Shown in pieces: positions 5,033 to 63,389 of a DNA stretch of 64,000 bases. The translations under genes and the position numbers were made by a program. The notes under the pieces were generated by a model. That model was not told the DNA's origin, searched no databases, and saw only the letters and a program-made list of their open reading frames with translations. Source of the stretch: Minisyncoccota bacterium (lineage in GTDB: Bacteria; Patescibacteriota; Minisyncoccia; Phycocordibacterales; UBA9973); contig JAGOSH010000001.1 of NCBI GenBank assembly GCA_018062425.1, positions 16,039-80,038 on the forward strand, given 5' to 3'. Position 1 is the first letter of the stretch. Each line of letters opens with the position of its first letter.

Positions 5033-5110
5033 AAGCACGAGCTATGAATTTTTCGAGTGGTGGCGATGCAAAGCAGGATATCCCGAGAAAAATTTGATAG
5101 CTTGTGCTTT
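5032..5110. repeat. 13-bp-stem inverted repeat (AAAGCACGAGCTA / TAGCTTGTGCTTT) holding copy 1 of a 46-bp repeat (5050-5095) in its loop
   Basis: Stem read directly from the sequence. The loop core TTTTCGAGTGGTGGCGATGCAAAGCAGGATATCCCGAGAAAAATTT matches 5421-5466 at 43/46. Confidence 0.7.
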
Positions 5111-5117
5111 CGCTAAA

Positions 5118-5969
5118 ATGCAAAAACATAAAGCAAAAAAATCATTGGGGCAAAACTTTTTAAAGTCAGAACAAGCCTTGCGCGAGATAGTCAAAGCGGG
5201 GGACATCACCCAAAGTGACACGGTCCTTGAAATAGGACCAGGCAAAGGCGCACTAACCGAAAGACTCTTGGAAAGCTCGGGCCGTGTGATAGCCATAGAA
5301 AAAGACCGTGAACTGGTAACTTTTTTGAATGAGAAATTTAAAGAAGAAATAGAAAACAAAAAACTAATTTTGGTAGAAGGAGATATTTTAGAACTGACTG
5401 TAAGCGAGATGCTTCCAAGCTTTTCGAGTGGTGATGATGCAAAGCAGGATATCCCGAGAAAAGTTTCGGAAGCATCTCGCTATAAAATCATCGCCAACAT
5501 ACCATACAATATAACAGGAGCTATCTTGAAAAAGTTCCTAACAGAGGAAAAACAACCTGAATTAATGGTGCTTTTGGTCCAAAAGGAAGTCGCTGACCGG
5601 ATAATCGCCAGAGATAGTAAAGAAAGCCTGTTATCAATTTCAGTGAAAGTTTACGGCACCCCTACATATATAATGAAGGTTGGAGCCAGATATTTCAGCC
5701 CAGCCCCCAAAGTAGACTCTGCAGTAATCAAAATAAACAACATTTCTCGAGAATTTTTCAATAAAAACAAGATCGCCGAGGCACTGTTCTGGGAATTAGC
5801 TCGAGCTGGCTTCGCCCACAAGAGGAAAGTACTGTCCGGCAACCTGAGATCTTGGCGGTCCACGGTAAACTGGCAGAAACTTTTAACTGACTCAAAAGTT
5901 CCAAAGAATGCTCGTGCAGAGGATTTATCCCTTGATGATTGGATTTCCATTTTAAAACACTTGGAATAA
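5118..5969 (+). CDS. rsmA: 16S rRNA (adenine1518/1519-N6)-dimethyltransferase RsmA/KsgA
   Basis: The SLGQNFL hallmark, the SAM-binding LEIGPGKGALT motif and NIPYNI. The start is taken at ATG 5118 (MQKHKAKKSLGQNFL); the listed start is TTG. The gene contains an in-frame repeat insertion at 5404-5480. Confidence 0.85.
   Translation: MQKHKAKKSLGQNFLKSEQALREIVKAGDITQSDTVLEIGPGKGALTERLLESSGRVIAIEKDRELVTFLNEKFKEEIENKKLILVEGDILELTVSEMLPSFSSGDDAKQDIPRKVSEASRYKIIANIPYNITGAILKKFLTEEKQPELMVLLVQKEVADRIIARDSKESLLSISVKVYGTPTYIMKVGARYFSPAPKVDSAVIKINNISREFFNKNKIAEALFWELARAGFAHKRKVLSGNLRSWRSTVNWQKLLTDSKVPKNARAEDLSLDDWISILKHLE
5404..5480. repeat. copy 2 of the 46-bp repeat (5421-5466), flanked by the 13-bp inverted repeat GCGAGATGCTTCC / GGAAGCATCTCGC, inside the rsmA coding sequence
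   Basis: Seen directly. The rsmA reading frame stays open through it and the insertion encodes roughly SEMLPSFSSGDDAKQDIPRKVSEASRYK. The central octamer GGATATCC is a perfect palindrome. Confidence 0.7.
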
Positions 5970-42968: not shown

Positions 42969-45143
42969 GTGTCTCAAAATCAAGGAAGTATCTTTAAATT
43001 AGTTAGTGAATTCAAGCCCGATGGTGATCAACCGAAGGCTATTTCGCAGTTGTTGGAAGGTTTAAATAAAGGCATGAAGAAGCAAACCCTGCTCGGGGCT
43101 ACTGGTACTGGTAAGACTTTTACCATGGCGAATGTTATAAAAGAGCACAACAAACCCACGCTCGTTATAGCCCACAACAAAACCCTCGCTGCCCAGCTCG
43201 CCCAGGAGTTCAAAGAATTTTTCCCCGACGCTGCGGTGCATTATTTTGTTTCTTATTACGATTACTATCAACCCGAGGCCTACATGCCAGTGTCGGATAC
43301 TTATATAGAAAAGGATGCCAGCATAAACAAAGAAATCGATCGTTTGCGACACGCCTCCACCCAAGCACTGCTTACCAGAAAGGACGTCGTTATTGTTGCG
43401 TCAGTGTCTTGCATCTATGGTTTAGGTAGTCCCGAAGAATATGAAAAAGTAAATCTTAAACTTGAGACAGGTATGAAGCTCGAGCGAAACACCTTAATGA
43501 AAAAGTTGATTGATATTCATTTCAGTCGAACCAATGCTGACCTAACACCGGGCACATTTCGATCTATCGGACCCAAGGTTGAATTTATGCCAGTGTCGGA
43601 AAACGTTATGTATTCTGTTGAATTCGGAAACTCGAGGTCGGACCTCAAGGGGTCCCGAGGTCCGACCTCAGAAATTTCTAAAATTAACAAAATTGATCCA
43701 GTATCTATGCAGGTTTTAGCTACAGAGAATAATGTCTATATATTCCCAGCGAAGCACTTCATTACCGAGGATGTGAAGGTAAAGAAAGCGCTCGAAAATA
43801 TAAAAAAGGAATTAGCACTACAACTTAAACAATTTGAAAAAGAGGGCAAACTGCTCGAAGCCGAAAGAATCAAAAGGCGGACTAATTATGACCTAGCTAT
43901 GATTCGTGAGGTCGGGTATTGTTCAGGGATTGAAAACTATTCTAGGCATCTGTCTGGTAAGAAGGAAGGCGAACCACCAGAGACTTTGTTGTCATATTTT
44001 AAAAAAGATTTTCTCACTATTATCGATGAGTCACATGTGACACTTCCTCAGCTCCAAGGTATGTATGCTGGGGATGCTTCTCGTAAAAAAACTTTGGTGG
44101 AATATGGATTTCGACTACCTAGTGCAAAGGACAACCGCCCACTCCAATATCCAGAGTTTGAAGAACGTATTGGTCAGGTTATCTACACCAGTGCTACCCC
44201 GAGCGAGCAGGAACGAACCCAAAGTGCGCAAATAGTGGAACAAATCATTCGCCCAACAGGGTTGGTTGATCCGGAAACAATTGTGCGACCAGTAGCAGAG
44301 AAGGGTGCGTATAAAGGCCAGATACAAGACTTCATTAAAGAAACCGAAGCAACTATCAAGCGAGGTTTCAGGGTTCTTGCTACAACCCTAACCAAAAAAA
44401 TGGCGGAGGATTTGTCGGTGTATTTGAAAGACAAGAAAATAAAAGCCGAGTATTTGCACAGCGACATCAAGACTTTAGACAGAATACGAATTCTCACTGA
44501 GTTTCGAAAAGGGAAGCACGACGTGTTGGTTGGAGTTAACCTCCTGCGTGAAGGCTTAGATTTACCAGAGGTAGCGTTGATTGGAATATTGGATGCTGAT
44601 AAAGAAGGTTTCTTGCGTTCTGAAACATCGCTCATTCAAACCATCGGCCGTGCTGCGCGTAACTCCGAAGGACGAGTGATACTTTACGCTGACCAGATGA
44701 CGAAGTCGATGGAAAGCGCCTTGGGGGAGACCAAGCGCCGCCGAGACACCCAACTATCCTACAACAAAAAACACGGTATAACGCCGAAGACGATTCTCAA
44801 AAACATCAAAGACATTACTGAGGCTATGGAAAGCGAACACGGCAAGGCGGTGAATGCGGAACTCAACATTGATCTGGAAGTATTCAAGAAAGCTTATGCC
44901 AAAGAATTGAAATTAGACCGGAGCAAGATTACCCAAAAGAAAACCAAAGAAGGCAACGTTACCGAGGTCAAACTCCACATGTCCGATGGTGAGAGGAGTA
45001 ACCTGGTTTATGAAAAAATAATCAAAATAAAAGAGAAAGAAATGAGTAAAGCTGTGAAAGAGCTCGATTTTGAAACCGCGGCCATCCTGCGGGATGAGAT
45101 GGGGGTATTGAGGGAAAGGATTGACAAAAGCGTAGAAGCGTGA
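42969..45143 (+). CDS. uvrB: excinuclease ABC subunit B
   Basis: The MSQNQGSIFKLVSEFKPDGDQPKAI N-terminus, Walker A GATGTGKT, the helicase motifs and the C-terminal UVR domain. It contains a 12-aa palindromic-element insertion (43634-43669). Confidence 0.9.
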   Translation: MSQNQGSIFKLVSEFKPDGDQPKAISQLLEGLNKGMKKQTLLGATGTGKTFTMANVIKEHNKPTLVIAHNKTLAAQLAQEFKEFFPDAAVHYFVSYYDYYQPEAYMPVSDTYIEKDASINKEIDRLRHASTQALLTRKDVVIVASVSCIYGLGSPEEYEKVNLKLETGMKLERNTLMKKLIDIHFSRTNADLTPGTFRSIGPKVEFMPVSENVMYSVEFGNSRSDLKGSRGPTSEISKINKIDPVSMQVLATENNVYIFPAKHFITEDVKVKKALENIKKELALQLKQFEKEGKLLEAERIKRRTNYDLAMIREVGYCSGIENYSRHLSGKKEGEPPETLLSYFKKDFLTIIDESHVTLPQLQGMYAGDASRKKTLVEYGFRLPSAKDNRPLQYPEFEERIGQVIYTSATPSEQERTQSAQIVEQIIRPTGLVDPETIVRPVAEKGAYKGQIQDFIKETEATIKRGFRVLATTLTKKMAEDLSVYLKDKKIKAEYLHSDIKTLDRIRILTEFRKGKHDVLVGVNLLREGLDLPEVALIGILDADKEGFLRSETSLIQTIGRAARNSEGRVILYADQMTKSMESALGETKRRRDTQLSYNKKHGITPKTILKNIKDITEAMESEHGKAVNAELNIDLEVFKKAYAKELKLDRSKITQKKTKEGNVTEVKLHMSDGERSNLVYEKIIKIKEKEMSKAVKELDFETAAILRDEMGVLRERIDKSVEA
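43634..43669. repeat. 36-bp composite palindromic element, in-frame within uvrB
   Basis: GAGGTCGGACCTC-AAGGGGTCCC-GAGGTCCGACCTC. The two arms are reverse complements of each other and each arm is itself a GAGGTC/GACCTC hairpin. It encodes RSDLKGSRGPTS. Confidence 0.8.
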
Positions 45144-48976: not shown

Positions 48977-50350
48977 ATGGAAACTATGACAAGTCAAGGA
49001 TTCAAAAAACTGAAACTACCCGAAAAACCCGGGGTTTATTTTTTTCTTGGCGGAAAGAGGTCGGACCTCGGGGATTCTAGAGGTCCGACCTCAAAGAGCC
49101 AGATTCTGTATATCGGCAAAGCCACCAGCTTGCGTGACCGAGTGCGTAGTTACTTTTCTAAAGACCTTATAGATACCCGCGGGCCACTCTTGGTGGATAT
49201 GGTCTTCAAAGCTGGGGATATAAAATGGCAGGAAACAGACAGTGTCCTTGAAGCGCTTATCCTAGAAGCGTCGCTAATAAAAAAACATCAACCGTATTAC
49301 AACACCAAAGAAAAAGATGACAAAAGTTTTAACTACGTTTGTATTACCAAGGAAGAATTACCTCGCGTTTTAATCATCCGGGGTAGAAATTTAATAAAAG
49401 AAAATTACAACAAAATATACGGACCATATCCGAATGGGGGACAGCTCCGAATTGCGCTCGAACTTATTCGTCGAATATTTCCATTTCTGGACGAAAAGTC
49501 CAAGGTTAAAGGAACATACGAATTTTATCGACAAATAAAACTTGCTCCAGAACAGAAAGAAATACTACTTAAAAACATCAAGAATATAAAACTCTTTTTT
49601 GAAGGTAAGAAGAAATCAATATTGAAAAGTTTAGAGAAAGAAATGAAAGTGTATGCGAAGAATAAAGAATTTGAAAAGGCTGGGGAAATAAAAAGGCAGA
49701 TCTTTTCGCTAAACCACATAAATGATGTTGCGTTAATCAAACAGGAAAAAACGAGTTATTCTAGCGCCAACGCCCTCGGAGACATAGGACAGGGGACCCG
49801 CGGCGCTTCGAATAATTCGTTTTTTCCAAAAACTGTCCGCATAGAAGCTTATGATGTAGCGCACATGTCAGGGCAGAATATGGTTGGGGTAATGACCGTG
49901 ATTGACCTGCCTGCCGGTGGGCAGGAGATGGGTGAGGTAAACAAAAGTGAATATAAAAAATTTAAAATTCGGACCCAAGATAATGCCAACGACACAGGCG
50001 CACTCGCAGAAGTTTTGGAACGCAGGTTTGGGCATCCTGAGTGGCGGAGTCCTGATTTGATAGTAGTAGACGGTGGCAGAGCCCAAATAAACTCGGCTGA
50101 GAAGGTTTTGAAGAGACTTAATTTGAGTATACCTGTGGTTTCAGTTCTAAAAGACGAGAGACACAGACCCAAAAACATTCTCTCGTCCCCGAGGTCGGAC
50201 CTCAAGGGGTCCCGAGGTCCGACCTCAAAAGAACTTGCACGCAAATACGAAAGAGAAATCCTACTTGTGAATTCCGAAGCACACAGATTCGCAATCAATT
50301 ATCATAAGCAAATGAGAAACAAAAACTTTTTACCCAAGAGAAATAAGTAA
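48977..50350 (+). CDS. uvrC: excinuclease ABC subunit C (short form)
   Basis: The GIY-YIG module PGVYFF...ILYIGKATSLRDRVRSYF, a UvrC central region and a C-terminal endonuclease domain. It carries two palindromic-element insertions. Confidence 0.85.
   Translation: METMTSQGFKKLKLPEKPGVYFFLGGKRSDLGDSRGPTSKSQILYIGKATSLRDRVRSYFSKDLIDTRGPLLVDMVFKAGDIKWQETDSVLEALILEASLIKKHQPYYNTKEKDDKSFNYVCITKEELPRVLIIRGRNLIKENYNKIYGPYPNGGQLRIALELIRRIFPFLDEKSKVKGTYEFYRQIKLAPEQKEILLKNIKNIKLFFEGKKKSILKSLEKEMKVYAKNKEFEKAGEIKRQIFSLNHINDVALIKQEKTSYSSANALGDIGQGTRGASNNSFFPKTVRIEAYDVAHMSGQNMVGVMTVIDLPAGGQEMGEVNKSEYKKFKIRTQDNANDTGALAEVLERRFGHPEWRSPDLIVVDGGRAQINSAEKVLKRLNLSIPVVSVLKDERHRPKNILSSPRSDLKGSRGPTSKELARKYEREILLVNSEAHRFAINYHKQMRNKNFLPKRNK
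49057..49092. repeat. 36-bp composite palindromic element copy, in-frame in the uvrC GIY-YIG region
   Basis: GAGGTCGGACCTC-GGGGATTCTA-GAGGTCCGACCTC. The arms are identical to the other copies but the spacer differs. It encodes RSDLGDSRGPTS. Confidence 0.8.
50180..50215. repeat. 36-bp composite palindromic element copy, in-frame in the uvrC 3' region
   Basis: GAGGTCGGACCTC-AAGGGGTCCC-GAGGTCCGACCTC, identical to the uvrB copy. It encodes RSDLKGSRGPTS. Confidence 0.8.
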
Positions 50351-56753: not shown

Positions 56754-58232
56754 ATGTCTCAAGGAAAACAAGATACCATAGTTAGATTTGATAAAGTCTC
56801 TTATGAATGGAGCGTAAACAAACCTATTTTAGAAGAGGTCTCTTTTTCTATTCGCCGAGGTTCAAAACTTACTTTGATGGGACAAAACGGCGCAGGTAAA
56901 AGTACTATCTTTGGACTCATTTCTGGAATGAGTGTTCCCGAATCTGGAATAATAAATATTATGAGTGGGGTCAGTATTGCTTCTAGTAGGCAAGTCATTC
57001 CTCGCTCCGAGCTTGAGCTCACAGTGCGAGAATTCTTCGAACAAGTATTCCCTAAGAAGGTTTACGACATTGATCCAAAGATAGATGAAATCCTGGAAGT
57101 AGTTAACCTCAAGGGCCACGAGAAAGTACATGACAGAGTCATGAAAAGTTTCTCTGGTGGTCAGCAGGCTAGGCTACTTTTAGCACAAGCACTGATCCAA
57201 GATCCGGACCTGCTTCTGCTCGACGAGCCAACGAACAACCTCGACAAGGCTGGTATCAAACACCTGACTGATTTCTTGGTGAATTACAAAAAGACAGTAT
57301 TGGTTATTTCTCACGATGCGGAATTCCTAAACGCTTTCACTGAAGGAGTGCTGTACCTGGATGTGTATACCAGAAAGATCGAGCAATATGTGGGCAACTA
57401 CCACAACGTAGTCAAAGACATCACTGCCAGAAAAGAAAGAGAGAATATGAAGAACGCGCAACTCGAAAAGCAGATCCAAGCCAAGAAAGACCAGGCCAAC
57501 GTCTTTGCCCACAAAGGAGGACGGCTTCGTTTGGTGGCGCGACGTATGCGTGAACTTGCCGAAGACCTGGAAGAAGAAATCGTGGACGTGCGCAAGGAAG
57601 ACAAAACTATCAAAAATTTCCAGATCCAAAACCAGCCAGACTTGATCGGTGAGATTTTGAATATTTCATCTTTCACCACCATGAAGTCGGGGAAAATAGT
57701 GAAGCGTGTAGCACACGTGTCCCTTAAAAAGAATATGCATTTACTCCTACAAGGACCAAACGGAATAGGCAAGAGTACTTTGTTGGAAAAGCTCGCCAGT
57801 GGAAAAGACGAGGGTTCAACTATTAGTGAAGGTATACGGGTGGGGTATTATCGCCAAGATTTTTCTACGCTTAATTTTGATCACTCGGTATATGAATCCC
57901 TCGCAAGTGCGATGTTAGAAGGTGGAGAGAAATTGGATGAAGAAAAAATGCGCGCTATTGCCGCCGGATTTCTAATCACCGGGGAAATGATTCGTACAAA
58001 AATAGGCAGTTTATCCGAAGGACAGAAGGGGCTCGTGGCTTTCGCTAGACTTGTAATGATAAAACCAGGACTCCTTATACTAGACGAGCCTACCAACCAT
58101 ATAAATTTTCGACATCTACCAATTATCGCCAAAGCGTTAGACTCCTACGCTGGTGCGATGATCCTCGTGTCCCATGTTCCTGAATTCGTAAAACAAATTA
58201 GGATTGATGAAGTGCTTGATTTAGAAAAGTAG
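56754..58232 (+). CDS. ABC-F family ATPase (two tandem ABC domains, no TM)
   Basis: LMGQNGAGKST and LQGPNGIGKST Walker A motifs, two LSGGQ-like signatures, and an inter-domain linker. Confidence 0.85.
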   Translation: MSQGKQDTIVRFDKVSYEWSVNKPILEEVSFSIRRGSKLTLMGQNGAGKSTIFGLISGMSVPESGIINIMSGVSIASSRQVIPRSELELTVREFFEQVFPKKVYDIDPKIDEILEVVNLKGHEKVHDRVMKSFSGGQQARLLLAQALIQDPDLLLLDEPTNNLDKAGIKHLTDFLVNYKKTVLVISHDAEFLNAFTEGVLYLDVYTRKIEQYVGNYHNVVKDITARKERENMKNAQLEKQIQAKKDQANVFAHKGGRLRLVARRMRELAEDLEEEIVDVRKEDKTIKNFQIQNQPDLIGEILNISSFTTMKSGKIVKRVAHVSLKKNMHLLLQGPNGIGKSTLLEKLASGKDEGSTISEGIRVGYYRQDFSTLNFDHSVYESLASAMLEGGEKLDEEKMRAIAAGFLITGEMIRTKIGSLSEGQKGLVAFARLVMIKPGLLILDEPTNHINFRHLPIIAKALDSYAGAMILVSHVPEFVKQIRIDEVLDLEK

Positions 58233-58233
58233 T
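58195..58233. repeat. 39-bp direct repeat, copy 1 (the abcF 3' end)
   Basis: AAATTAGGATTGATGAAGTGCTTGATTTAGAAAAGTAGT is identical to 60185-60223. Confidence 0.9.
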
Positions 58234-60184
58234 GCTTGCAATATTTTTATATATTGATAATATAAGACCTATGTTTAGGTTAAGTCATTATTTATATACA
58301 TCTAAGAAAATTGAAGGGGAGTCCACCAAATAGGCCGCGAAAGCGGTTTTTTTAATACTTAATTTTTAAAAACGATGAATTACAAAGAAAAGCTACTAGA
58401 AAAGTTAAAAGAGAATATTGCTAGTGTCAGGGAAAAGATTTTTGAGAAACTAGAGTCAATCAAACTACTGAATGATAAAAACTTGAAACAGATCGGGTCC
58501 CTAAAAGGAGAAGAGCGGGATATCCAAATGGCAACCAAAATTAGACTAGATGAGAGATTTGAAGAGCTGAACCATCTGTACAAAACACCCTACTTTGCTA
58601 AATGCGAATTTATTCAAAACAAAACAGGAGAAAAGAAAAACTATTATTTCGCTAAACACCAACTAGTAGAGGAGTCTGTTTATTCCTGGGTGGCACCCAT
58701 AGCCGCTATTAGATTCGAAAATCCTGGACAAGCTTCGTACAAAATTCCCAACGGCAAAATAATGGAAGTAAATATATTACACAAAGAGCAATACATGATT
58801 GTGGACGGCAAGGTCATATTTTTCTCAGTAGAGGATTTAGATAAACCTCGAGACCTGATTTATCAAGAAAACTTTACTTCCAAAAAGGCAGGGTTTGTTC
58901 TACCAGAGATCGTTGCGCAAATGGAGAAAGCTCAAGACCAAGTCATCCGTGCATCTCACAAAGGACCGTTGGTTATATCTGGCCCCGCTGGCTCCGGCAA
59001 GACCACTTTGGCACTCCACCGAGTTGCGTACCTGACTCAGGCTCCAGAAACGCTAGCTTTTTATCCAGCTCATTCAATTATTGTGTTGGTTCAAGACACT
59101 GGCACTAAGGAATATTTCTCACATCTTTTGCCAGAGCTGGGTATACACCGTGTAACCATAACAACATTTCAAGAATGGGCTTTCAGTATATTGGACCTAG
59201 AAGGGTGCTCGTATGTTTCTAGATATGGAGACAATGAAGAAGAAAAAGATGTGTATGAGTATCAAAAGATAAAAGCTTTAAGAACAGAAACAACCCCTAG
59301 TTTCAACGATAACTATTTTCGTGTACTTAATTCTGTTTACAAGAAACATATAAACGCAGGGTTGTTTGAAAAGCAGAAAAAAGAAATGAAATTAGATCGT
59401 TTTGATATAATTATGCTTCTACAATCTTACTTAAAAAAGCACAACAAGTTTGTGATTAAAAGAAAATACTTAACCATGGTTAACGGTGAGGTTAAGCAAA
59501 AAGTTGAAAAAAAATCAGTAGTGTATTCACTTATCATTCTGGATGAATTTCAAAATTATTTGCCGGAACAAGTAAAAATTCTGAAATCTTGTTTACAAGA
59601 GGAAACCCAATCTATGGTGTATGTTGGGGATATGGCTCAGCAAGTACAGCTCGGAACTATAAAGGACTGGGACGAAGCAGGGGAAACAATAAAAGAAGAG
59701 AGAAAAATAAAGTTAGATAAAGTTTATCGCAATACTAAAAATATACTTTTGTTTATCGAGAGCCTTGGTTACCCAACAGTTATTCCTGTTGGGATAAAAG
59801 AAGGCGTGCCTGTGGTGGAAAAGTTACTTGAAAATAGAACGAAAGAAATAGAATATATTAAAGCAGTAAGTGATCAATATAAAGAAGGGACTGTTGGTGT
59901 CATAGCCAAAGATCCAGCCTACTTAGAAGATTTTAAAAAAGAGTTCACTGAACACAAAAACATCCATGTACTAACCATGAATGAATCCCAGGGGGTAGAA
60001 TTTGATTTGGTGTGCTTGGTTGGTATTAATGAAAATACCTTTAAAGTTACACATTATGCGGATGTTCTACCAGAGCATTTAATAGAAAGAAAGAGAATGC
60101 AGAAAGACTTGCTCTATGTTGCTTTAACACGAGCCATTAGTGAATTGCATGTTTTGGGCACTAAAAAACTAAAAGAAATTCTAT
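58234..60184 (+). mobile_element. 1.95-kb inserted module carrying a HelD-like helicase gene, bounded by the 39-bp direct repeats
   Basis: The segment sits between perfect 39-bp repeats that recreate the overlapping 3' ends of abcF (plus) and rluB (minus). It has its own TTGCAA-16nt-TAATAT promoter-like sequence at its left edge and a GGCCGCgaaaGCGGTTTTTTT hairpin upstream of the gene. No integrase or transposase is visible. Confidence 0.4.
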
Positions 60185-60186
60185 AA
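58375..60186 (+). CDS. UvrD-like SF1 helicase with an N-terminal accessory domain (HelD / helicase IV-like)
   Basis: Walker A VISGPAGSGKTTLALHRVAYL, motif II IILDEFQNY, and a C-terminal VALTRA motif. Confidence 0.7.
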   Translation: MNYKEKLLEKLKENIASVREKIFEKLESIKLLNDKNLKQIGSLKGEERDIQMATKIRLDERFEELNHLYKTPYFAKCEFIQNKTGEKKNYYFAKHQLVEESVYSWVAPIAAIRFENPGQASYKIPNGKIMEVNILHKEQYMIVDGKVIFFSVEDLDKPRDLIYQENFTSKKAGFVLPEIVAQMEKAQDQVIRASHKGPLVISGPAGSGKTTLALHRVAYLTQAPETLAFYPAHSIIVLVQDTGTKEYFSHLLPELGIHRVTITTFQEWAFSILDLEGCSYVSRYGDNEEEKDVYEYQKIKALRTETTPSFNDNYFRVLNSVYKKHINAGLFEKQKKEMKLDRFDIIMLLQSYLKKHNKFVIKRKYLTMVNGEVKQKVEKKSVVYSLIILDEFQNYLPEQVKILKSCLQEETQSMVYVGDMAQQVQLGTIKDWDEAGETIKEERKIKLDKVYRNTKNILLFIESLGYPTVIPVGIKEGVPVVEKLLENRTKEIEYIKAVSDQYKEGTVGVIAKDPAYLEDFKKEFTEHKNIHVLTMNESQGVEFDLVCLVGINENTFKVTHYADVLPEHLIERKRMQKDLLYVALTRAISELHVLGTKKLKEIL

Positions 60187-60223
60187 ATTAGGATTGATGA
60201 AGTGCTTGATTTAGAAAAGTAGT
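60185..60223. repeat. 39-bp direct repeat, copy 2 (its antisense encodes the RluB C-terminus TTFLNQALHQS)
   Basis: Identical to 58195-58233. It overlaps the helicase stop codon and the last 12 codons of rluB on the minus strand. Confidence 0.9.
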
Positions 60224-60898
60224 CAGTTCTTCGCCTTTGATTTCTCTGGTAGCTTTCGGTGAAAGTTTGCCGAGTTCTATGTTCATGACGCGAACACGCT
60301 TTAGGTCTTGGACATCTTGGAATAGTGCCACACACATACGGCGGATCTGATGTTTCTTGCCTTCGGTTAGGGTTACACGGAAAGTGTTTTCATTTACTAT
60401 TGTAACCTTACAAGGTTTGGTTATGTAATCCTCGATGTTGACCCCGGCTTCCATTTTTTCTTTGAAGTTACTGCGAAGTTTTTGTTTAGTTTTTACTACG
60501 TATTCTTTTTCATGATCAAACTTGGGATTCAGTAATCCGTCGGTTATGCGTCCGTCGTTGGTGAGTATGAGTAATCCATGTGAAGCTTTATCGAGTCGGC
60601 CAATAGGGAACAGTCCCGCTGTTGGTGAATCGGTTTCGGTGCCAATAGGTTTGTTGTATGCAAAATACTTGTAGGTCTTTTTTTCTGCGCCTTTTACTTC
60701 TACTTTGTCTGTTTTTGATACCTTGCTTCCCAGGACTGCAAGCTTACCGTTGATAAAGACTTTCTTTTTCTCCACGAGTTCATCCGCCCCTCGCCTAGTA
60801 GCGATTTGCTTCAGAGCCAAGTATTTATTGATTCGCATAGGATATGTCGGGGTTCCGGCTACAAGTACAGGTTTTTTTGGTTTTGATAGTTTTTTCAT
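60188..60898 (-). CDS. rluB: pseudouridine synthase, RsuA/RluB family (S4 domain + catalytic domain)
   Basis: An S4-like N-terminus and the catalytic GRLDKASHGLLILTNDG with its conserved Asp. The start may be the internal MRINKYLA. Confidence 0.8.
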   Translation of the reverse strand: MKKLSKPKKPVLVAGTPTYPMRINKYLALKQIATRRGADELVEKKKVFINGKLAVLGSKVSKTDKVEVKGAEKKTYKYFAYNKPIGTETDSPTAGLFPIGRLDKASHGLLILTNDGRITDGLLNPKFDHEKEYVVKTKQKLRSNFKEKMEAGVNIEDYITKPCKVTIVNENTFRVTLTEGKKHQIRRMCVALFQDVQDLKRVRVMNIELGKLSPKATREIKGEELTTFLNQALHQS

Positions 60899-63154: not shown

Positions 63155-63173
63155 GCGGAGGCGGTGAGATTCG
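63155..63173. repeat. 19-bp duplicate of the tRNA-Ser 3' end
   Basis: GCGGAGGCGGTGAGATTCG is identical to 63304-63322, which is the 3' acceptor and T-arm portion of the tRNA-Ser gene. Confidence 0.8.
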
Positions 63174-63304
63174 GTCAGGCGTTTTCGCCTGCTGGCGAAA
63201 CGCACGACCCTGGCTCGGCCCGTCGGCCTCCGCCTTTCTCATCTCCCGCATTCACGCAATGATGCTCCACTCGAATGTCTCCCAGACATTCTCTTGGATC
63301 ATTG

Positions 63305-63389
63305 CGGAGGCGGTGAGATTCGAACTCACGGTACCTTGCGATACTCCTGTTTTCAAGACAGGTGCACTAAACCACTATGCGACGCCTCC
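63305..63389 (-). tRNA. tRNA-Ser (anticodon TGA), with long variable arm
   Basis: Hand fold: acceptor GGAGGCG/CGCCTCC, anticodon stem CCTGT/ACAGG with loop CTTGAAA, variable arm GTATC-GCAA-GGTAC, and T-arm GTGAG-TTCGAAT-CTCAC. Confidence 0.85.

Follow-up and report, generated by a model that had tools for sequence, protein, structure and literature searches.

A HelD-like helicase gene between convergent abcF and pseudouridine synthase genes, flanked by two copies of their overlapping ends, in a Minisyncoccota bacterium

Organization of the locus

The DNA analysed here, referred to as the window, is a stretch of 64,000 nucleotides from a Minisyncoccota bacterium (contig JAGOSH010000001.1 of assembly GCA_018062425.1), in which a gene for a HelD-like superfamily 1 (SF1) helicase is situated between abcF, specifying an ABC-F ATPase, and a convergently oriented pseudouridine synthase gene. 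A 39-nt direct repeat, AAATTAGGATTGATGAAGTGCTTGATTTAGAAAAGTAGT, is present at both ends of the helicase segment (Table 1) with an identity of 39/39, and none of 100 dinucleotide-preserving shuffles of the window yielded such a match (0/100), even when three mismatches were allowed. The 1951 bp between the two copies contain a single long open reading frame (ORF), that of the 603-aa helicase. An earlier note, made from the sequence alone, had described a perfect 39-bp repeat around a 1951-bp segment with one SF1 helicase gene and without a visible recombinase, and on both counts it was correct, as neither the ORF list nor family scans of the insert revealed a recombinase. An inverted repeat pairing the two ends of the 1951-bp insert was likewise not found.

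Table 1. Features of the abcF-synthase locus (window coordinates)
Feature	Coordinates	Strand	Basis or remark
abcF, ABC-F ATPase, 492 aa	56754..58232	+	ancestral overlap with synthase gene in final 35 nt
Repeat copy 1: abcF tail, TAG and 1 nt	58195..58233	.	sequence comparison and shuffles
Inserted segment (promoter, leader, HelD-like gene), 1951 bp	58234..60184	+	missing without scar at the single-copy junctions L002, L003-L006 and L177
Sigma-70-like promoter of insert	58236..58263	+	-35 TTGCAA 58236-58241, 16-nt spacer, extended -10 TGaTAATAT 58255-58263
Leader mini-ORF, 20 codons MFRLSHYLYTSKKIEGESTK, TAG stop against the terminator stem	58271..58333	+	read from sequence, recurs at homologue loci
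Intrinsic terminator hairpin GCCGC-GAAA-GCGG, then T7	58332..58353	+	terminator scan and fold; ends ~20 nt before the helicase ATG
HelD-like SF1 ATPase, 603 aa	58375..60186	+	profile, PDB sequence and fold matches
Repeat copy 2; antisense is the synthase tail TTFLNQALHQS and stop	60185..60223	.	sequence comparison and shuffles
RsuA/RluB/RluF-family pseudouridine synthase, 236 aa (S4 domain and PseudoU_synth_2)	60188..60898	-	Pfam, TIGR00093

Copy 1 of the repeat comprises the last 11 codons of abcF, its TAG stop codon (58230-58232) and one extra base, while the antisense strand of copy 2 comprises the last 11 codons of the synthase gene, its stop codon (60188-60190) and three extra bases, such that the 39 nt correspond to a 35-nt gene overlap extended by 3 nt past the synthase stop and by 1 nt past the abcF stop. 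The TAA stop codon of the helicase gene (60184-60186) uses two bases of copy 2, with one base remaining between it and the synthase stop.

The abcF product contains two ABC_tran domains (Pfam) and obtained its best NCBIfam match with a ribosomal-protection-like ABC-F model, at 308 bits, which is under the 380-bit cut-off of that model. For the synthase, only the general model TIGR00093 passes its cut-off (123 bits against 109 bits); the best named model is RluF, and RluF/RsuA-type models fit better than RluB. The earlier assignment of the two copies to the C-termini of ABC-F and RluB consequently stands as regards both tails but not as regards the name RluB. The ABC-F C-terminus, QIRIDEVLDLEK, is the usual ending of such proteins, being nearly invariant, with few variants, among the 120 homologues listed, and the synthase tail retains an FLxxL pattern even where the two genes do not overlap. 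Because of this near-invariance and of the pattern being kept in the absence of overlap, both tails are real parts of their proteins, and their retention is plausibly under selection.

The same architecture recurs in another assembly of this strain (L001, identity 99.9%), in four assemblies, from different samples, of a relative with a 92% identical helicase (L015-L018), and also in relatives in which the repeats are diverged. A chimeric join or collapsed variant, to which a repeat of about k-mer length could give rise, can be given next to no weight: 39 nt does fall within the k-mer range of assemblers, yet independent assemblies from different samples and pipelines agree on the structure, and a k-mer artefact is impossible for the relatives because their two repeat copies differ from each other. 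One of these four assemblies, L016 (helicase P0121), is labelled 'Simkania sp.' (GCA_018333475.1); its contig has the Paceibacteria abcF-helicase-synthase order, and the label is probably a binning error.

Empty junctions in relatives

Relatives were gathered through homologue look-ups of ABC-F in their contigs and by scanning genomes that represent species; the ABC-F of the window itself had no record when its exact sequence was looked up. The names that the homologues bear assign the organism to the Paceibacteria (Patescibacteria/CPR). In L002, the ABC-F of which is 94% identical to that of the window, and in L003-L006 (92%), abcF and the synthase gene overlap by exactly 35 nt, with one repeat copy and no scar, and these junctions run directly into sequence matching the right flank of the window. 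The scan of species-representative genomes added four further empty junctions with the 35-nt overlap (L022, L025, L027 and L028), and L177 represents another junction of this kind, empty and with a single copy. The earlier note had predicted empty sites with overlapping tails, and such sites are present in all of these genomes; it had also proposed an ancestral pair of convergent genes with tails overlapping by about 36 bp, which the scar-free junctions corroborate except that the overlap is exactly 35 nt. As compared to the single copy at empty sites, the overlap is found on both sides of the insert, in agreement with the notion that the insertion duplicated it and left both genes intact.

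In more distant relatives (ABC-F ~70% identical) the same convergent pair is 236-317 nt apart, or the two genes are not adjacent. At L052 and L077 the abcF-synthase gap measures 236-247 nt and holds a small ORF which, read from the sequence by eye, has the look of a GIY-YIG-type domain.

Filled junctions, their age and descent

The abcF-helicase-synthase order was found in at least six lineages, in which the identity of the helicase to that of the window falls to ~70% (Table 2). All of the closest junction-resident helicases have the same ~143-nt leader as the window, and wherever the helicase resides at this junction, the abcF tail recurs on the synthase side. The trees considered here are single-gene neighbour-joining trees of metagenome-assembled sequences. 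In that of the helicase, the window protein and the other junction-resident proteins fall into one clade (bootstrap support 100%), and the sister group of this clade includes P0128, a protein encoded at the unrelated locus L173. In a metagenome scan covering 73 loci, full-length homologues of 63% identity or less were all located away from abcF and the synthase gene, and the only other junction copy, L099, was on the same contig as L015.

Table 2. Helicase identity and repeat conservation at filled junctions
Locus	Helicase identity to window	Protein	Copy 1 versus copy 2
Window			35/35 (35-nt core)
L015-L018	92%	P0121	32/35 (35-nt core, L015)
L013/L014	84%	P0122	31/35 (35-nt core, L013)
L009-L012	72%	P0123	6-nt deletion in copy 2 and helicase fusion (L009)
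L174	71%	P0124	34/35 (35-nt core)
L176	70%	P0125	degenerate, almost unrecognisable

The two copies have fared very differently among these lineages, and because the perfect repeat of the window is the extreme of a range of copy identities it is not a mark of recency. In L009 (7780-7824), and also in L010-L012, a 6-nt deletion in copy 2 has placed the helicase in frame with the abcF-derived tail, so that the helicase ends in ...SEVLDLEK at the abcF-derived stop codon and the synthase is two residues shorter, while the helicase of L174 reads into copy 2 in another frame and ends in ...LLVNQD. The left boundary of copy 2 (aaa|T[TC]AGG) is identical in the window, L015 and L174. The stop codon of abcF in copy 1 has changed from TAG to TAA in six lineages (L009, L013, L015, L019, L023 and L024), which points to release from dual coding, since under overlap this change would alter a codon of the synthase gene. 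The earlier view of the insertion as recent is not sustained, given that the arrangement is common to lineages with 70-92% helicase identity in which the repeats have decayed to varying degrees.

Divergence of the insert follows that of its surroundings. Nucleotide identity between the window and L015 is ~86% for the insert and ~91% for the synthase gene, and between the window and L013 ~76% and ~75%, respectively; along these two comparisons no mosaic or donor-like foreign tract was seen adjoining the insert. In the abcF tree, a clade with 98% support, here termed clade A, has the helicase-bearing L174 and L009 as its basal members, followed by L007, which holds another cargo, and by the empty L003, and in its interior the empty L002 groups with the window; in the synthase tree, L003 is joined to the window and L015 at 100%. 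L177 and L174 are 97% identical in ABC-F and 94% in the synthase, have synteny in common and both carry a lineage-specific ATC variant in the repeat, and the helicase is present in L174 only, where its 71% identity to that of the window is the distance predicted by its flanks. A ribonucleotide-reductase block between ruvA and rpsT is common to the window, L002 and L003 and is not present in L009, L174 and L176.

Other cargos at the same junction

The helicase unit is not the only insert at this site. L021 (8465-11141) carries a 2.6 kb diversity-generating retroelement (DGR) at the abcF/synthase junction, comprising a 229-aa ORF, a bAvd match (3.5e-13) and a reverse transcriptase (RVT_1, 1.9e-22), the ORF of which is fused in frame with the duplicated abcF tail and ends in QQIRIDEVLDLEK; in L023 the insert measures 1.56 kb and encodes, on the minus strand, a protein of 301 aa. 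At each of these two loci the abcF tail is clearly present a second time. The left edge of this copy 2 lies 6 nt past the synthase stop in L021, 4 nt in L023 and 3 nt in the helicase clade, and all three clear duplications are only 4-6 nt longer than the minimum of 35 nt. Other small genes are located at the junction in L007, L019, L020 and L024, the products of which have signal-peptide-like or hydrophobic N-termini as read from their translations, and the synthase tails of these loci are degenerate versions of the repeat sequence. From these sequence features, the DGR and the other cargos appear to have entered the junction independently, each with its own duplication.

A special insertion hotspot was considered and rejected, as the S20-abcF, RuvA-S20 and synthase-p156 junctions of the same block are as variable as the abcF-synthase junction. 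The distinctive feature of the latter is that any viable insertion into the overlap must carry the overlap twice.

These observations also bear on the possibility of a recent site-specific integration, in which a mobile helicase cassette would have been inserted by a recombinase acting in trans with the 39-mer as its attachment site, a possibility along the lines of the site-specific or att-type event favoured by the earlier note. We consider it highly unlikely. The perfect flanking repeat, the scar-free empty sites in close relatives and the repeated use of the junction by different cargos are what such a system would display, but neither an integrase or other recombinase nor terminal inverted repeats are present within the 1951-bp insert or at its ends, the insert spanning its own promoter to its own stop codon; the arrangement is old, with helicases diverged to ~70% and repeats diverged or decayed; the edge of the duplication varies among the three cargos (3, 4 and 6 nt past the synthase stop); and the neighbouring junctions are equally variable. 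A search for the helicase module elsewhere, as the earlier note had proposed, located it at many other homologue loci, though never with this repeat. What holds of that proposal is its alternative of a selected rearrangement.

Proposed history of the junction

The history that we judge probable consists of one old insertion which copied the overlap, followed by vertical descent and by repeated precise deletions through the repeats. In a subclade of the Paceibacteria, the convergent abcF and synthase genes would have lost their spacer until their tails overlapped by 35 nt, and in the ancestor of clade A a complete unit, consisting of promoter, leader ORF on a terminator and the 603-aa HelD-like gene, would have landed in this junction, its source probably being elsewhere in the same genome or in a close relative. 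The surviving product carries the overlap twice because insertion into the overlap otherwise destroys one of the two genes; copy 1 would then have completed abcF, and copy 2 the synthase gene. In the window, the duplicated stretch exceeds the overlap by only 4 nt. This near-minimal length may reflect either that long duplications are rare and that selection requires at least 35 nt, or that deletion bias shortened an initially longer duplication as far as the two stop codons. Candidate routes to the duplication are staggered breaks, a tandem duplication followed by deletion, and homology-facilitated illegitimate recombination.

The arrangement would subsequently have been inherited vertically, with the copies drifting unequally among lineages and occasionally being homogenised, and recombination between the direct repeats would remove the insert precisely and restore an intact overlap. 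The empty sites of the closest relatives are accordingly most likely secondary precise deletions and not the untouched ancestral state; such deletion would most likely have occurred independently in L003, L002 and L177, and L007 would represent a replacement.

Several points weigh against this history. It requires at least three independent precise deletions in addition to the replacement in L007, and an intermediate with a longer duplication was not found among the loci compared. In some genomes the two copies have a variant in common (GTG for the window, ATC for L174, GAC for L023), which could reflect gene conversion or separate duplication events. Several inner nodes of the trees are weak, and the trees disagree on L002, the ABC-F of which is 94% identical to that of the window while its synthase (L002:7445-8092) is only 74-76% identical, a discordance which implies that recombination does occur in this region. 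A less likely alternative model has ancestral empty sites with repeated gain or homologous transfer of the filled allele. It may also be observed that the discordance of the two L002 flanks suggests a recombination breakpoint at or near the overlap.

A specific form of this alternative, in which the empty sites are ancestral and the filled allele has spread either through homologous recombination within the conserved flanks or because an excised circle re-integrated in a RecA-dependent, Campbell-type manner at the single-copy overlap, was weighed against the same data and is in our judgement rather unlikely. The helicase tree agrees with the flank trees, the divergence of the insert is in line with that of the flanks and no donor-like tract lies beside the insert. 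For L174, filled as compared to its empty 97%-identical relative L177, a recent loss is a better explanation than acquisition from an unknown donor at an equal distance. Spread of the filled allele would, on the other hand, account for the interleaving of empty and filled sites in the flank trees, for the lineage-specific variants in both copies of one genome, for the 39/39 repeat of the window despite the age of the insertion and, through regional recombination, for the abcF/synthase discordance of L002.

The HelD-like protein

The earlier note had regarded the cargo as a HelD/UvrD-type helicase, a class which it described as frequent in accessory or defence contexts. The HelD-like nature is supported by profile, sequence and fold comparisons. 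Among NCBIfam models, HelD_BACSU matched at 4.4e-40 as compared to 1.3e-13 for helicase IV and 5e-13 for UvrD, albeit that the score against the equivalog NF041464 (137.3 bits) is below its 419-bit cut-off. A PDB sequence search returned B. subtilis HelD (6wvk_H) at 1.6e-31 and PcrA at 4.5e-9, the former alignment spanning the N-terminal PYF..EF and Trp regions as well as the C-terminal motor. With an AlphaFold2 model of the protein, for which the predicted local distance difference test (pLDDT) score was 80.9, Foldseek ranks 1-7 were all HelD-RNA polymerase structures (1.7e-23 to 1.4e-17), with PcrA/UvrD appearing from 2.8e-14. Helices 2-32 and 45-70 of the model (pLDDT >80) form a predicted N-terminal antiparallel pair like the secondary-channel arm, and an insertion at residues ~270-395, with helices at 288-356 and a beta hairpin at 360-381, is placed between the halves of domain 1A; this insertion, a candidate counterpart of the clamp-arm, is about half the length of the B. 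subtilis arm.

The protein retains the PYF..(C/I)(E/D)F block, the Trp followed by Ala-Pro, and the SF1 Walker A and B motifs. The DWR[A/S]P motif of the N-terminal domain, which forms the Trp cage, has been called absolutely conserved in HelD by Larsen et al. (PMC8655204). The corresponding position here reads S104-W105-V-A-P108 (SWVAP), in which the Trp and Ala-Pro are kept and the Asp and Arg are not, and S104, W105 and P108 are invariant (S-W-x-x-P) in 48 homologues. Patescibacteria, 'candidate phyla' and Parcubacteria were looked for in the text of the same survey and do not occur in it. At 603 aa the protein is shorter than the 774-aa class I HelD of B. subtilis, an RNA polymerase recycling motor (PDB 6WVK). 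From its homology and predicted fold, it is probably an RNA-polymerase-associated recycling factor of the HelD kind.

Orthologues of ~600 aa, with the leader, are widespread across Paceibacteria in other, unrelated contexts. Homology with the unrelated locus L173 starts at the -35 box, 2-7 bases past the abcF stop, and ends at the variable C-terminus of the helicase, and because the homology has these limits the insert corresponds to exactly one transcription unit. The G+C fraction of the helicase gene is 0.364 as compared to 0.407 for the rest of the window, which is 4.3 points lower. A foreign origin inferred from this difference was rejected on the grounds that helicase orthologues elsewhere differ from their own flanks by -0.009 +/- 0.030 and that another gene of the window stands at 0.372; the compositional check proposed in the earlier note accordingly gave no foreign signal beyond the norm of the family.

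The accessory or defence character is, by contrast, not upheld. That the insert is a defence or accessory gene, related to GajB of Gabija or to another UvrD-like defence helicase and residing in a variable hotspot, is very unlikely: the family looks single-copy, is widely conserved in Paceibacteria and has its own conserved leader, there are no partner genes, the neighbours being abcF and the pseudouridine synthase gene, and HelD in complex with RNA polymerase accounts for all of the top seven structural matches. PADLOC did return matches to NERD+UvrD, DRT-associated helicase and GajB models, but these are weak (64 bits or less, as compared to 137 bits for HelD) and confined to the generic SF1 core; the DGR at the same junction in L021 is the other observation in favour of a defence setting. 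The best reading of the insert is that it is a product of ordinary genome evolution and not a mobile or defence element.

The leader upstream of HelD-like genes

In helicase orthologues across Paceibacteria and in unrelated contexts, a sigma-70-like promoter is followed by an ATG 6-7 nt past the -10 box, which opens a leader ORF of 17-23 codons whose stop codon abuts or sits within an intrinsic terminator, and this terminator lies 8-35 nt before the helicase ATG (61 nt in one locus). The arrangement is seen in the window (58236-58374) and in L101, L104, L109, L111-L114, L116, L168, L173 and others, and the terminator hairpin is conserved in L009, L013, L015, L173, L174, L176 and many others. 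A leader ORF, defined as an ATG and at least 12 codons ending at the stem, was present in 32 of the 38 homologue loci with an upstream terminator, as compared to 8.9% of shuffles. The promoter of the window is a putative one, since the consensus scan did not list it, its -10 hexamer failing the rule of the scan. The mini-ORF is probably translated from a leaderless transcript, and the terminator probably also ends abcF transcripts.

Selection on the leader peptide itself, of the arrest-peptide type, was rejected: differences at the first, second and third codon positions numbered 128, 153 and 126, with no third-position excess, and 24 codon differences were synonymous and 243 non-synonymous. 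What is conserved within the close group is the open frame, the position of the stop codon and some nucleotide blocks. A riboswitch-like reading was dropped for this subgroup, as the leader has no fold beyond the terminator (z = -0.74). At gathering threshold, Rfam identified only three tRNAs in the window, and for the leader at E <= 5 only a chance-level Trp_leader match of 15 bits.

The leader has the architecture of a ribosome-dependent attenuator, namely a promoter and a short ORF ending on a terminator, conserved among orthologues. In the pyrBI leader of E. coli, a short ORF near the promoter reaches or enters an intrinsic terminator which is located shortly before the regulated gene. By analogy, we speculate that the mini-ORF and terminator could form an attenuator that couples expression of the HelD-like gene to the distance between ribosome and polymerase. 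Were a ribosome to follow RNA polymerase closely as far as the stop codon, it would cover the 5' arm of the hairpin, and a slowed or stalled polymerase would let the ribosome catch up, such that the hairpin would be masked and the polymerase-rescue factor induced. As with pyrBI, a short ORF sits on a terminator in front of the gene and a trailing ribosome would block the hairpin; unlike pyrBI, there is no sequence relationship and no Rfam match, the ORF is probably at the 5' end of the transcript and the gene is HelD-like.

In B. subtilis, helD responds to rifampicin through sensing by convergent promoters (PMC12802891), whereas a leader ORF and a terminator are found here. A convergent-promoter sensor of that type was dropped, as matches in the scan were less numerous than in shuffles; within the leader, a single weak promoter-like sequence was noted in antisense orientation (58288-58259). 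In the literature no specific precedent for HelD leader peptides was found, it being noted that queries on 'HelD' also match the word 'held'.

A different conserved leader was observed ~150 nt upstream of homologues of ~50% identity (L119, L121, L126, L129, L135, L162 and L164). The sequence ..CGACTTA..AAGCAGG..ATTGTATC..GCAATTTCC.GCTTAT..TAAGTCG forms a long hairpin of irregular shape in this leader, with a run of T after it. A leader ORF is not obvious there, and the element could be a structured RNA or a riboswitch-like attenuator.

Other repeats in the window

Three further repeats were noted. A 41-nt element is present in three copies of 78-98% identity (43633-43673, 49056-49096 and 50190-50230), each with two GAGGTC(C/G)GACCTC palindromes and at least two of them within long ORFs, and may be a small repeated palindromic element. 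A 46-nt direct repeat of 93% identity (5050-5095 and 5421-5466, 371 nt apart) lies close to the beginning of an ORF (5094-5969). The 3' end of tRNA-Ser(TGA) has a perfect 19-nt duplicate (63155-63173 and 63304-63322), 149 nt from the gene and with GC-rich sequence between, which looks like the remnant of an integration at a tRNA gene.

Discussion

Comparison with known insertion systems indicates in what respects the locus is familiar and in what respects it is not. The target-site duplications made by transposases are typically 2-15 nt in length. As with such duplications, a direct repeat of host sequence flanks the insert and the empty site is single-copy; unlike them, no transposase or terminal inverted repeats are present, the repeat is far longer at 39 nt, its length follows the gene overlap (35 + 4) and its boundaries vary among events at one site. 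With att-site islands of the Campbell type, for example those at tRNA genes, the locus has in common that the duplicated segment rebuilds the end of a host gene and that copy-copy recombination excises the insert precisely. It differs from them in lacking an integrase and in having a repeat that completes two genes, one on each strand; moreover, its cargo is a resident unit of housekeeping type, for the excision of which homologous recombination by the host is presumably responsible.

A likeness in form is also to be found in genome engineering. In the refactored phages T7.1 and phiX174.1f, overlapping genes were separated, or 'decompressed', by writing the shared segment twice. At the abcF-synthase junction, too, each gene keeps a complete copy of the shared segment; unlike the engineered cases, this solution was reached in nature, on at least three occasions at a single junction, and it can be reversed. 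No specific precedent for duplication of an overlap at convergent genes was found in the literature.

Two bolder readings can be attached to these data: that the duplicated tail acts as a reversible attachment site without a recombinase, by excision of a circle and RecA-dependent re-entry, or that the mini-ORF and terminator constitute a new attenuator. That at least one of them is true is possible but more doubtful than probable, and most of what probability there is derives from the attenuator. If the attachment-site reading were true, the junction would be a natural reversible cassette site in bacteria of the Candidate Phyla Radiation (CPR).

The leads most worth following are the leader ORF with its terminator and the compact HelD-like family, the former being the most novel by-product of this work. 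The family is widespread in Paceibacteria and has an altered Trp-cage motif, and the leader represents a testable new regulatory arrangement for a polymerase recycling factor in organisms in which hardly any regulation is known. The locus also serves as a caution, in that an insertion need not be recent or mobile even where its flanking repeat is perfect and a relative has the empty site. For genome evolution, it offers a clean natural case in which a genome with overlapping genes can accept new genes by writing the shared segment twice. After duplication each copy is freed from dual coding, as the change of the abcF stop codon from TAG to TAA and the decay of copy 2 or its fusion with the cargo exemplify, and the repeat itself provides a means by which the event can be exactly undone. 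Since one and the same junction has taken up a HelD-like unit, a DGR and a further unknown gene, a small comparative series is available for the study of gene gain and loss in the streamlined genomes of CPR bacteria.

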